Shown piece by piece: positions 5,986 to 15,080 of a stretch of DNA of 32,000 nucleotides (position 1 is its first letter; each line of letters opens with the position of its first letter). Where the stretch lies: the NCBI GenBank assembly GCA_003345555.1, contig PRDJ01000026.1:9864-41863 (forward strand), given 5' to 3'. This DNA comes from Candidatus Thorarchaeota archaeon (lineage in GTDB: Archaea > Asgardarchaeota > Thorarchaeia > Thorarchaeales > Thorarchaeaceae). Both the position numbers and the translations under genes were made by a program. The notes under the pieces are model-generated. The model was not told where the DNA came from. It ran no database searches and was given only the letters and a program-made list of their open reading frames with translations.

Positions 5986-6546
5986 ATGTATGAGGCCATC
6001 GCAGTAATTGAATTGGCAGTCTGGCTTGGATTGCCGGCGTGGGTGGCGAACTTCACGCCAGTTATTTTCGGAGGGGGAATGCCCATAGATCGAGGAAGGG
6101 TTCTTCGTGATGGACATAGATTGTTTGGCGACGGGAAGACAGTCAGAGGATTCATAGCAGGAGTGATATGTGGTACAGTGGCAGGAGTAGCTCAAACCAT
6201 CGCGGGTCCGTTCTTGGAGCCGATACTGAGCTGGTATGTGGTCGTCACCCCTGACATGGAAACAGTGTTGCTGATGAACCTGCCTGCAGCGTTTCTGCTA
6301 TCCCTCGGTGCGCTTACCGGTGACCTTGCAGGATCCTTCATCAAGAGAAGAGCAAATATCAAGAGTGGAGGCCCATCACCGATGCTCGACCAGCTCGGCT
6401 TCGTAATCGTCGCTCTCATTGCGGCATCGTTTTTCTTGCGGCCTGCTCCAGAATATGTCCAGCTACTCATACTCATTACGCTCGGTGCGCACTGGTTGAG
6501 TAATGCATTAGGCTACTTGGTGGGTCTCAAGAAACACCCTTGGTGA
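5986..6546 (+). CDS. carS: CDP-archaeol synthase (CDP-2,3-bis-O-geranylgeranyl-sn-glycerol synthase)
   Basis: ANFTPVIFGGGMPID, GDGKTxRG, GDLAGSFIKRR, LDQL, several transmembrane segments, and a K-x-x-PW C-terminus. Confidence 0.93.
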   Translation: MYEAIAVIELAVWLGLPAWVANFTPVIFGGGMPIDRGRVLRDGHRLFGDGKTVRGFIAGVICGTVAGVAQTIAGPFLEPILSWYVVVTPDMETVLLMNLPAAFLLSLGALTGDLAGSFIKRRANIKSGGPSPMLDQLGFVIVALIAASFFLRPAPEYVQLLILITLGAHWLSNALGYLVGLKKHPW

Positions 6547-6750
6547 CGCCGAGAGTGAAACACCTGAGCTCTTGCGTCATTTCCCGAATTCATAAGTGCT
6601 TGTTGATGTCAATATGCAAATGGCCAAAGATAGACATAAAAGGTGTAGAACCCTCTCAGTGTTGCTCTGAGTAGAATACCGATTGGCTCAGTCTGTGAAG
6701 AGCTCAATCGGAATCTAATACTCTTCTACTACTCTTGGAGTTGTTATACA

Positions 6751-13183: not shown

Positions 13184-14431
13184 TCACGAGGTTTGCTCGA
13201 TAAGCGTTTGGAGCCCTGTCAGAAAGATGCTGATATCGTTTGAGTTGTTGTAGATGTAGATTGATGCTCGCGCGGTCCCCTTGGACGGCGGAATTCCGAT
13301 TTGGTAGTGGAAAGGCGCTGCGCAATGCCATCCGCTCCTAATCATGACGGCATACCTGTCGTTGAGGAAAGTTGCGATATCATGTGCAGACTCAACCGTG
13401 TCGATAACAAACGTCAGAAGTCCAGTCCGAAGGTTCACATCGTCTGGTCCAAGGAAATGGACATGACTTAGCTGCTTGAGCCCTTCCAACGCCGCTCGAA
13501 GGAGATCCCTTTCGTGTTGCTCGATTTCACGCATTCCGATTGACTGCAGGTATTCGGCCGCTGCCCCGGCGCCTATGGCACCGGCATAGTTCTGCAATCC
13601 TGCCTCGAACTTGTGCGGAGGAGGCAGATAGGAAGGTATGATGCGGCCATCCTCAAACCTCACGTCACTGACGGTATCGCCGCCGACAAGAAACATGTCC
13701 ATTGACTCAAGGAGGCTCATCTTGCCATAGAGTACGCCCATTCCCGTTGGTCCACACATCTTGTGAACTGAAATGGCAGAGAAGTCTACGTCAAGATTCT
13801 GAACGTCAAGCGGATGATGTGGAGCGTATTGTGCATCATCCGAAACCACCAATGCTCCTCGATCGTGTGCAATTTCGATTATCTCTCTCAGTGGCGCTAT
13901 TGTGCCTGTCACATTGGAAGAATGAACGACTGATACAATCCTTGTACTGCTGTCTATTGCTCTCTTCCAATCCTCGATATCGAAGGTTCCGTCGTTCCGG
14001 GCCCTAACTACTTCCAACTTCAGACCAGTTTTCTTTGCTCTCTCCACAAAGGGCAACGAACCGCTATGATGCTCCAAGCTCGTCGTTACAACCTTAGACC
14101 CTCTTTCAATCTTTACAGAGCTGGCGACAATATTGAGTGACTCCGTGGCGTTGCGGGTCCAAATACACTCACCCGGTTCTGCTGCATTTATGAATCTCGC
14201 CAACTTGCCTCTGGCCCTTGAATATGCGTCAGAAGCCTCTTCGCCGAGTCTATGAATACTCCTGCCGCCGCAGGCAGGAAAACGCTCGTAATACTCGTTC
14301 ATGGCACTGATGACCTGACGAGGTTTTAGTGCCATGCATGCACTATCAAGATACACAATGGGTCGGCCGTTTATTTTCCGTTTGAGAACCGGAAAATCCG
14401 ATCTTATTCGAGACCAGAATCTGTCGTTCAT
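13184..14431 (-). CDS. Cysteine desulfurase, SufS/CsdA group (class V PLP enzyme)
   Basis: IRSDFPVL, VYLDSA, PLP lysine in SVHKMCGPTG, FEAG, and catalytic RSGWHCA. Probable start is MNDRFW at 14431. Confidence 0.92.
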   Translation of the reverse strand: MNDRFWSRIRSDFPVLKRKINGRPIVYLDSACMALKPRQVISAMNEYYERFPACGGRSIHRLGEEASDAYSRARGKLARFINAAEPGECIWTRNATESLNIVASSVKIERGSKVVTTSLEHHSGSLPFVERAKKTGLKLEVVRARNDGTFDIEDWKRAIDSSTRIVSVVHSSNVTGTIAPLREIIEIAHDRGALVVSDDAQYAPHHPLDVQNLDVDFSAISVHKMCGPTGMGVLYGKMSLLESMDMFLVGGDTVSDVRFEDGRIIPSYLPPPHKFEAGLQNYAGAIGAGAAAEYLQSIGMREIEQHERDLLRAALEGLKQLSHVHFLGPDDVNLRTGLLTFVIDTVESAHDIATFLNDRYAVMIRSGWHCAAPFHYQIGIPPSKGTARASIYIYNNSNDISIFLTGLQTLIEQTS

Positions 14432-14433
14432 TC

Positions 14434-14670
14434 TCAGCCCCTCACTATCTGCCAGTGGTATCCGCCCTTTCCAATTTTCCTCGTGATGATACCCCGCTCT
14501 ACCAGCTGATTGGCCGCTATGACAAATGTGTCGCCACCTGCACAGTCCTTGCATACCTCTGCATATTCAGCCCTCCGTGCTAGTTCCAGAATCTCAGAAG
14601 TGGTAAATGAGCCTCCGGCTTCGAGGATCTTCAGTATGCACTGAGCATTTCTTGATAACGTGGACATCAT
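14434..14670 (-). CDS. Small winged-helix protein with a CxxC insertion (putative regulator)
   Basis: The 78-aa ORF MMSTLS... shows a wHTH pattern (ILKILE..SFTTSEILE..QLVERGII..GGYHW) with CKDC between the helices. It stops 2 nt before the desulfurase start. Confidence 0.72.
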   Translation of the reverse strand: MMSTLSRNAQCILKILEAGGSFTTSEILELARRAEYAEVCKDCAGGDTFVIAANQLVERGIITRKIGKGGYHWQIVRG

Positions 14671-14828
14671 TAATGGGGTCCGGGATGCGGAATAAGAAGT
14701 CTTCGAAGATATAATTGCCCTGCAACTTAACATAATACTTAAATGATATCCATCGAGGCTAGAACCCGTTCTGTTTCTTTCCGTGCCTAGTAGCTCGGTC
14801 TGTGTGAAATAGGCGAAGGTGTACTGTG

Positions 14829-15080
14829 ATGGGAAGAAGAAGAAGGCAGAAAATCCGGAGAAGACCTCAGAAGCGAATTCCAGATGTGTATCAGTGTCCG
14901 GATTGTGGCAACGCTGCAATCAAGATAGAGCTGTTCAGGGACAAGAGTCTCGCGACAGTGAAGTGTGGGTCATGCGGTTTGGAGATGACCATTGACGATG
15001 TGAGTTCGCTTACCGAGCCAGTAGACGTTTACGGTAGCTTCATAGACAAGTTCTATGAAGGAGACAAGACGGAGAAGTAG
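14829..15080 (+). CDS. elf1: Transcription elongation factor Elf1
   Basis: Basic N-terminus MGRRRR, Zn ribbon CPDC..CGSC, and the EPVDVY..FID motif. Confidence 0.93.
   Translation: MGRRRRQKIRRRPQKRIPDVYQCPDCGNAAIKIELFRDKSLATVKCGSCGLEMTIDDVSSLTEPVDVYGSFIDKFYEGDKTEK

Follow-up and report, generated by a model that had tools for sequence, protein, structure and literature searches.

In a 32,000-nucleotide stretch of a Candidatus Thorarchaeota genome (contig PRDJ01000026.1, positions 9,864 to 41,863; hereafter the window), a 78-amino-acid protein encoded directly upstream of a SufS-like cysteine desulfurase represents, in free-standing form, a winged-helix domain with three cysteines that has not been described before and that we call wH3C. 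We give an even chance to the proposition that wH3C is a dedicated protein partner of the SufS-like enzyme, most likely an acceptor of persulfide or of a metal cluster, and a sulfur-accepting enzyme partner is more likely than the gene regulator suggested by an earlier, sequence-only reading of the same DNA. The partner is placed first because domain and enzyme stay associated in both archaea and bacteria and in three different gene arrangements, including a fusion; because the enzyme is of type II and needs a partner that is otherwise absent from the genome; and because the loop of the enzyme that faces the acceptor is remodelled.

The wH3C gene occupies positions 14434–14670 on the minus strand, stop codon included, and is followed on the same strand by the gene for the cysteine-rich, SufS-like (type II) desulfurase at 13184–14431, which encodes 415 residues; the two products are labelled P0001 and P0002, respectively. 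The TGA of wH3C (14434–14436) and the ATG of P0002 (14429–14431) are separated by GA, and the second reading frame thus begins 2 nt past the end of the first. Translation places cysteines at positions 11, 40 and 43 and a histidine at 72, confirming the open reading frame (ORF), residues and spacing given in the sequence-only reading. Orthologues are mostly 77 residues long and start at the second methionine, and for that reason the true start is probably at 14667, giving a 77-residue protein. The codon for C11 (14638–14640, minus strand) falls in the middle of the first helix, the C40-K-D-C43 knuckle (14542–14553, minus strand) lies in the extended loop that joins helices 2 and 3 and is followed by a conserved [SG]-G, and the homologue alignment marks R64, K68 and G70 as conserved, and W73 as invariant, in the wing (14452–14481, minus strand).

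An AlphaFold2 model of wH3C, computed from a 45-sequence alignment, has a predicted local distance difference test score (pLDDT) of 87 and is a canonical winged helix, with helix H1 at residues 7–19, a short strand, H2 at 24–31, a loop at 32–45, H3 at 46–58 and a wing at 62–75. The order H1-b1-H2-H3-b2-b3 is exactly that of the winged-helix (wHTH) superfamily. As the sequence-only reading had it, the CxxC sits between helices 2 and 3; the loop that carries it is 14 residues long and modelled with lower confidence, and pLDDT drops to its minimum (79) at the C40-K-D-C43 knuckle. A structure search with VIA returned Z scores of ~9–11 over 66–72 residues for many winged-helix domains, the best being the DNA-binding domains of Zur/Fur, MarR, MecI and RosR (Z 9.9–10.9; ~10–11 for Zur/Fur/MarR domains), and the top Foldseek matches in the PDB were the small archaeal and viral winged-helix DNA binders AspA, F-93 and Stf76. 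The fold proposed at the outset is borne out by these searches, in which the PDB yielded generic winged-helix proteins only (e.g. Zur/Fur, MarR, MecI, YceH, viral and plasmid proteins) and no specific relative.

At the level of sequence, P0001 matched nothing in Pfam or NCBIfam at E ≤ 1, and a member-wise Pfam scan of the 45 wH3C sequences gave weak, sub-threshold MarR-type matches only. Single sequences reached E 0.004–0.009 at best against MarR and MarR_2, in 6 and 4 of the 45 members, and the family scored 84–87% against the MarR_2 profile in hhalign. MarR-type proteins, AspA, F-93 and Stf76 share the fold of wH3C and are similar in size, but the flanking helices through which MarR proteins of ~140 residues dimerise are absent from wH3C, which has instead a long, cysteine-bearing H2-H3 insertion. 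The Rrf2 model (PF02082) matched 1 of the 45 members at E 0.043, and not P0001; the ArsR model (HTH_5, PF01022) matched 1 of 45 at E 0.18, and comparison with 22 Thorarchaeota ArsR proteins gave hhalign values of 5.9–9.6%, so that a likeness to ArsR/SmtB was not found. The sequence-only reading had set the protein apart from the known cysteine-sensing regulators, and wH3C indeed belongs to none of these families. A distant paralogue was seen in another setting: a multi-pass membrane protein of 277–297 residues, encoded at L027:3998–4858 (minus strand) and in ~10 other Thorarchaeota genomes, ends in a weakly related winged helix (E ~1e-6 to 1e-5) that lacks the cysteine triad.

Conservation of the three cysteines is nearly complete. 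Among 63 homologues, C11 is present in all 61 sequences that cover its column, C40 in 62 and C43 in 63, and the triad is invariant in both stand-alone and fused forms of the domain. W73 is likewise found in 63/63, R or K at position 64 in 58/63 and K68 in 43/63, the last being replaced by E or S in fused DPANN forms. The acidic residues near the knuckle are not invariant (E/D38 in 40/63, D47 in 29/63). H72, which the sequence-only reading had listed beside the cysteines, is present here and is not conserved among homologues: its column contains R, V, I, H or Y. Exposed helix-3 residues are variable, and the domains differ in net charge (-4 to +7; median pI 7.7).

The enzyme encoded by the second gene belongs to the SufS-type class V aminotransferases (Pfam Aminotran_5, PF00266, E 2e-111), ~40% identical to Bacillus subtilis SufS over its full length. 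Against TIGR01979 it scores 431.1 bits, below the curated SufS cut-off of 475.1, and wH3C-linked enzymes of other lineages score 303–447 bits. By alignment, K224 in S-V-H-K (13760–13762, minus strand) corresponds to the pyridoxal phosphate (PLP)-binding lysine in the HK motif of solved SufS structures, and C370 in R-S-G-W-H-C-A (13322–13324, minus strand) to the catalytic cysteine of B. subtilis SufS (C361), which type II enzymes carry on a short loop. An Aminotran_5 fold, a PLP lysine and a catalytic cysteine on a short loop mark P0002 as a type II desulfurase.

Two further cysteines distinguish P0002 from canonical SufS and CsdA. C32 (14336–14338, minus strand) stands in 'LDSACMALKP', where canonical SufS has 'LD[SN]AA[TS]xQKP', and C54 opens the C54-G-G-R57 sequence (14261–14272, minus strand) of the alpha3-alpha4 loop, at the site of N-V-H-R in canonical SufS (H55/R56 in E. 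coli). P0002 thus carries 'ACMALKP' and 'ACGGRS' in place of 'AA[TS]xQKP' and 'N-V-H-R-G'. In alignments of 18 and 28 enzymes, 'LD[SN]AC..LKP' and '[AGS]C[GA]G..R[ST].H' replace the canonical 'LDNAATTQKP' and 'NANVHRG.H' in all wH3C-linked enzymes, and neither extra cysteine is found in any solved SufS or CsdA structure. In E. coli SufS the alpha3-alpha4 loop is the 'R56 loop', which contacts the cysteine loop of the acceptor SufE as well as the substrate sulfur and the persulfide (PMC11408855). P0002 is an atypical type II desulfurase in which the acceptor-facing loop is remodelled. Many Asgard archaea have this 'DSAC ... CGG/CAG-R-S-x-H' form of SufS, even where wH3C is lacking (families f4, f13 and f18); it appears to be an uncharacterised enzyme subfamily without a solved structure. 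Some Thorarchaeota have a second 'DSAC/CGG' copy beside a radical S-adenosylmethionine (SAM) gene, and enzymes of this type without wH3C (L105, L106, L108, L109 and L110) each adjoin a different small ORF.

A type II desulfurase depends on a transpersulfurase of its own, and the only known pairs are SufS/SufE, SufS/SufU and CsdA/CsdE (PMC11408855). In the genome that carries the locus, which is 93% complete, we found neither SufE/CsdE (PF02657) nor SufB/SufD. SufB/D is present in none of the 4 genomes of the genus and in 21/37 of the family. Only two NifU_N genes occur in the genome, both IscU-type and each beside its own IscS, and P0001 itself has no match to SufE (PF02657) or NifU_N (PF01592) at E ≤ 1. 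With two IscS-IscU pairs elsewhere and the SufS-like gene beside wH3C, each desulfurase gene of this genome therefore adjoins a small three-cysteine protein.

The association of wH3C with the enzyme was followed through Asgard archaea in samples of metagenome-assembled genomes, to which all genome counts refer. The wH3C gene is present in 129 of 301 sampled genomes, with the three cysteines invariant; its pairing with the desulfurase gene is far beyond chance. It was found in 75/76 genomes of the family that includes our locus (f1), in the single genomes of f2 and f25, in 26/28 of f5, in 11/11 of f14, in 3/3 of f26 and, as tandem pairs, in 9/11 of f27; sampling of two large Asgard families did not yield it (0/68 and 0/19 genomes). 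In f1, f2 and f5 the desulfurase gene lies directly 3′ of wH3C on the same strand in all 28 loci fetched, with an overlap or a gap of 0–10 nt, and many further same-contig pairs of wH3C and SufS-like genes were visible in the Asgard genome searches. The linkage, whose conservation the sequence-only reading had named as a check, holds in these three families; in most genomes of f14, f26 and f27 the two genes are unlinked.

Unlinked wH3C genes neighbour a gene for a FAU-1 RNase E/G, a PAC4-like gene and UbiX. The PAC4-like candidate (proteasome assembly chaperone 4; PF16093, E 1.8e-6 to 5e-3, below the cut-off) is the ORF immediately downstream of wH3C, overlapping it, in six f14/f26 loci (L047–L051 and L054). 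In f25 an Nfu-type gene comes after wH3C. In f27, a Heimdall-group family, the SufS-like gene is divergently paired with a zinc-ribbon-like CxxC...CxxC protein of 67–68 residues instead of wH3C (L062:3615–3821, L063:3620–3826 and L064:5346–5549), and the tandem wH3C paralogues are located elsewhere (L055–L057 and L059).

Outside Asgard archaea the domain occurs within larger proteins. A word-index search did not find longer fused relatives (weak evidence); a phmmer/HMMER scan of 1.8 billion representatives identified wH3C as the C-terminal ~75 residues of longer proteins (E 2.5e-7 to 9.4e-4), namely radical SAM proteins of 388–431 residues and proteins of ~145–360 residues without a radical SAM motif. 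In phmmer the link between the fused domains and P0001 has E values of 2.5e-7 to 8e-5. In Elusimicrobia a radical SAM-wH3C fusion of the P0067 type is conserved at 37 loci, and at 34 of these a SufS-like gene runs up to, or into, the beginning of the fusion gene; at the other 3 the upstream sequence is missing or gives no strong match. The Elusimicrobia enzymes are 33–39% identical to P0002, score 303–314 bits against TIGR01979 and contain both cysteine motifs. All six DPANN-type metagenome loci with enough flanking sequence, among them one from Aenigmatarchaeota, have a SufS-like gene whose start lies within the wH3C-bearing gene, and these enzymes are 44–48% identical to P0002. Coupling of the domain to the same kind of enzyme is thus seen in three distant lineages, in which the pairing recurs independently. 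The fusion of wH3C to radical SAM proteins beside the same SufS-like gene is the decisive result and counts against a pure autoregulator; a role as structural partner was one of the outcomes that the sequence-only reading had itself said would refute its proposal of a regulator.

The fused relatives resemble HxsC4, one of the maturases (HxsC/HxsC4) of the HXS antiphage system, and lie among further genes of that kind. The DPANN cluster in L113 (2259–10252) is HXS-like and encodes HxsD, an HxsD-like protein, three to four HxsC/HxsC4-like enzymes and a His-Xaa-Ser repeat protein; the Elusimicrobia clusters (L068–L103) contain several HxsC-like radical SAM genes. The published HXS system has neither a desulfurase nor a wH3C domain (PMC13128918), unlike these clusters (L112, L113, L114–L118 and L068–L103), which carry both a cysteine-rich SufS-like gene and wH3C, and the NCBIfam HxsC4 model stops short of the wH3C domain. 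The Thorarchaeota genome does not belong with the HXS systems: HxsD was not found in it, and its radical SAM genes show generic similarity to HxsC4 only (97.7 bits against a cut-off of 500).

Several observations weigh against an enzyme partner. The basic wing tip (R64, K68) is kept in the stand-alone Asgard forms, and wH3C is as similar to MarR-type DNA-binding domains by hhalign (84–87%) as to anything else. The wH3C and SufS-like genes are adjacent and divergent in one f14 genome and in the f25 genome (L050 and L061), an arrangement typical of a regulator and its target, and they are unlinked in f27. Families f14 and f26 keep wH3C without a close orthologue of the enzyme; the best match there, at 40–42% identity, is a canonical SufS, and the only SUF genes form a canonical sufB-sufS-sufU-sufC operon. 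Finally, in a sparse, unrooted tree the cysteine-rich enzymes are not cleanly monophyletic, with canonical SufS nested among cysteine-rich enzymes that have no wH3C.

Much of this could be accommodated if wH3C were a minimal winged-helix repressor that senses Fe-S clusters, persulfide or redox state through its three cysteines, in the manner of Rrf2/IscR, and autoregulates its operon over the core promoter. Rrf2-type Fe-S sensors characteristically combine three cysteines with a variable fourth ligand, and IscR, NsrR, RirA and RsrR, like SufR, resemble wH3C in having a winged helix with three conserved cysteines and in being encoded by the first gene of a sulfur-mobilisation operon. The structural matches to DNA-binding domains, the MarR_2 score, the conserved wing residues, the divergent pairs, the gene-specific conserved element at -37 to -25 and the persistence of wH3C without a linked enzyme, as could be the case for a trans-acting factor, all speak for it. 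A winged-helix fold alone cannot separate a DNA binder from a protein partner, however, and a repressor does not explain the fusion of the domain to radical SAM enzymes beside the same enzyme family in two other phyla. Rrf2 proteins are dimers of ~140–160 residues whose cysteines follow the wing and lie in the dimerisation helix or close to it, whereas wH3C carries its own inside the winged helix (in helix 1 and the H2-H3 loop), stops directly behind the wing and leaves no room in 78 residues for a dimerisation element; its DNA binding is putative. The variable exposed positions of helix 3 and the spread of net charge also argue against a regulator.

The upstream region offers the regulator little. 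The sequence-only reading had pointed to a palindrome, TCTTCGAAGA (14700–14709), abutting an AT-rich, TATA-like octamer, AATTATAT (14709–14716, minus strand), and had cautioned that 10-bp palindromes are common by chance. The positions are right and the caution was justified, since the window holds 28 perfect 10-bp palindromes compared with 31 ± 6 in shuffled sequences. TCTTCGAAGA is kept only in part and only within the genus, its left half not being conserved outside it, and was rejected as an operator because it is at chance level and not conserved; nor is the AATTATAT 'TATA' conserved among orthologous loci. What is conserved is a promoter-like element, GAAGACTTCTTAT (14692–14704, minus strand), whose 5′ half the palindrome overlaps. 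In 24 of 27 orthologous loci a motif of the form [AG]AA[AG]-N1-3-[CT]TT[CAT]-[ATC]TA[TA] begins 34–39 nt 5′ of the start codon, and in f5 orthologues the equivalent position is occupied by GAATAATTTAAAT, with a plain AATTTAAAT box. Because its distance to the start codon is as expected, we read GAAGACTTCTTAT as the B recognition element (BRE) and TATA box of a leaderless mRNA. No extra conserved inverted repeat was seen upstream of wH3C, and the conserved element is best seen as a core promoter, with no demonstrable operator.

A genome-wide motif search did not identify a regulon. GAAGACTTCTTAT-type sites are rare, with 5 strict matches in the 2.28-Mb genome, and a search with GAAG..CTTC..TAT gave 40 loose and 5 strict matches, none near iscS/iscU and forming no coherent gene set; a crude promoter consensus drawn genome-wide from first-ATG ORFs gave no signal. 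The sole match with a thematic link is a near-copy of the motif, GAAAGCTTCCTAT, outside the window (G000:C18, ~6519–6575, plus strand), 44 nt 5′ of a gene for a 341-residue radical SAM protein with CxxxCxxC near its N-terminus, and it may be a coincidence. Taken together, the fold, the cysteines and, in part, the linkage on which a minimal autoregulator was proposed have held up, and its operator and H72 have not; with the domain also fused to radical SAM enzymes elsewhere, we regard a regulator as possible though rather unlikely.

The intergenic spacer (14671–14828, ~155 nt) separates wH3C from a gene for an Elf1-like zinc-ribbon protein (14829–15080, plus strand), which flanks the wH3C-SufS-like pair in divergent orientation at each of the 25 Thorarchaeota-family loci checked. 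It contains two strongly conserved minus-strand blocks, CATTTAAGnnTTnTGTTAAG (~14730–14749) and GGCACGGAAAGAAACAGA (~14765–14795), which may belong to the Elf1-like gene, as its promoter and 5′ leader, or else mark a small RNA; the spacer matched no Rfam family.

The evidence from gene coupling and fusion would serve equally well if wH3C bound the desulfurase without carrying sulfur. In such a protein a structural zinc ion would staple the H2-H3 loop to helix 1, and the domain would act as an allosteric activator or client adaptor. IscX (YfhJ) and DsrD offer precedents as winged-helix-type proteins of ~65–80 residues that are encoded in the operons of sulfur enzymes and act on the enzyme (IscS and DsrAB, respectively) rather than on DNA; unlike wH3C, neither has a conserved cysteine triad. 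The C-x-x-C-x-[SG]-G knuckle together with a helix-borne cysteine resembles structural zinc knuckles, and the language-model neighbours of wH3C include DsrD and the YecH metal-binding family at ~0.88–0.89, a score that serves only as a lead. These matches fall below a meaningful level, and DsrD appears solely as such a neighbour (0.88); no sequence relationship to IscX or DsrD was detected, though no search aimed at them was made. Only three ligands are conserved, moreover, neither E/D38 nor D47 being invariant, and the type II enzyme would be left without an acceptor in the genome. We therefore consider a purely structural adaptor decidedly improbable.

A relationship to the ribosome was suggested by profile searches, in which the best PDB sequence matches of the family were all to the eukaryotic ribosomal protein eS10 (17 entries, E 0.017–0.24, aligned over the full length), the similarity being to its N-terminal winged helix. 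If this were meaningful, wH3C would be an RNA- or ribosome-associated winged helix, and its adjacency to the desulfurase a lineage-specific accident. The family scores 73–82% in hhalign against an eS10 alignment, compared with scores of 7.5–14 for reversed or shuffled controls, both proteins have an unusually long H2-H3 linker, and in f14 and f26 wH3C neighbours the FAU-1 RNase gene and sometimes translation genes. The published lack of an archaeal counterpart of eS10 (PMC11274626) is a further point in favour. MarR_2 scores equally well, however, so that the profile similarity is not specific. The Pfam model S10_plectin (PF03501) misses wH3C even at E ≤ 10 per genome in its own and 5 other Asgard genomes, and the leading structural matches do not include eS10. 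The failure to find wH3C in the sampled genomes of two large Asgard families and its coupling to SufS-like genes in three phyla also speak against a ribosomal role. This origin is very improbable.

An acceptor that partners the enzyme is most readily compared with the known type II pairs. As in SufS-SufE, SufS-SufU and CsdA-CsdE, a type II enzyme is encoded beside, and translationally coupled with, a small cysteine-bearing protein. The likeness to SufU and IscU lies in the ligand set alone, three cysteines with nearby carboxylates. The differences are as follows: wH3C has a winged-helix fold without similarity to PF02657 or PF01592; the small gene is upstream of the enzyme gene, unlike in the SufE, SufU and CsdE pairs; the enzyme has two extra cysteines and lacks N-V-H in the alpha3-alpha4 loop; and, in contrast to SUF systems, there is no SufBCD in the locus or the genome. 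A zinc-swap of the SufU type was rejected as a mechanism, since the SufS histidine that binds the zinc of SufU in B. subtilis is not conserved across the cysteine-rich group to which P0002 belongs.

We propose that wH3C and the desulfurase would be made together through translational coupling. The desulfurase, with PLP bound to K224 and with C370 as catalytic cysteine, would take sulfur from cysteine to form a buried persulfide, for which a type II enzyme requires an acceptor, the known kinds being absent from this genome. wH3C would dock on the enzyme, and its C40-x-x-C43 loop, exposed and presumably near C11, may receive the sulfur; or else the three cysteines, together with a neighbouring carboxylate, might bind zinc or an Fe-S cluster, as in IscU and SufU. 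Sulfur or cluster would then be handed to client proteins. In DPANN archaea and Elusimicrobia, where wH3C is built into a radical SAM enzyme, that enzyme is the predicted client.

A broader version of this proposal, which we hold to be unlikely, is that wH3C and the cysteine-rich enzyme form a self-contained fourth type II system, in which wH3C is a transpersulfurase of new fold or a minimal Fe-S scaffold that relies, like IscU and SufU, on three cysteines and a carboxylate, and that has been recruited by fusion to supply HXS-like radical SAM enzymes in DPANN archaea and Elusimicrobia. The pair of genes would then have its home in Asgard archaea without SufE or SufU and, in the case of this genus, without SufBD.

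Whichever role applies, wH3C gives a name to a conserved domain shared by Asgard archaea, DPANN archaea and Elusimicrobia. Were it a regulator, it would be the smallest known winged-helix sensor with a cysteine triad. If it is instead the partner of the desulfurase, it would constitute a fourth family of acceptors, structurally unrelated to SufE, SufU and CsdE, and variants of the recently described HXS radical SAM antiphage system would gain a link to an enzyme that mobilises sulfur. It would also explain how an 'orphan' SufS-like enzyme can work in Asgard archaea that have no SUF scaffold.

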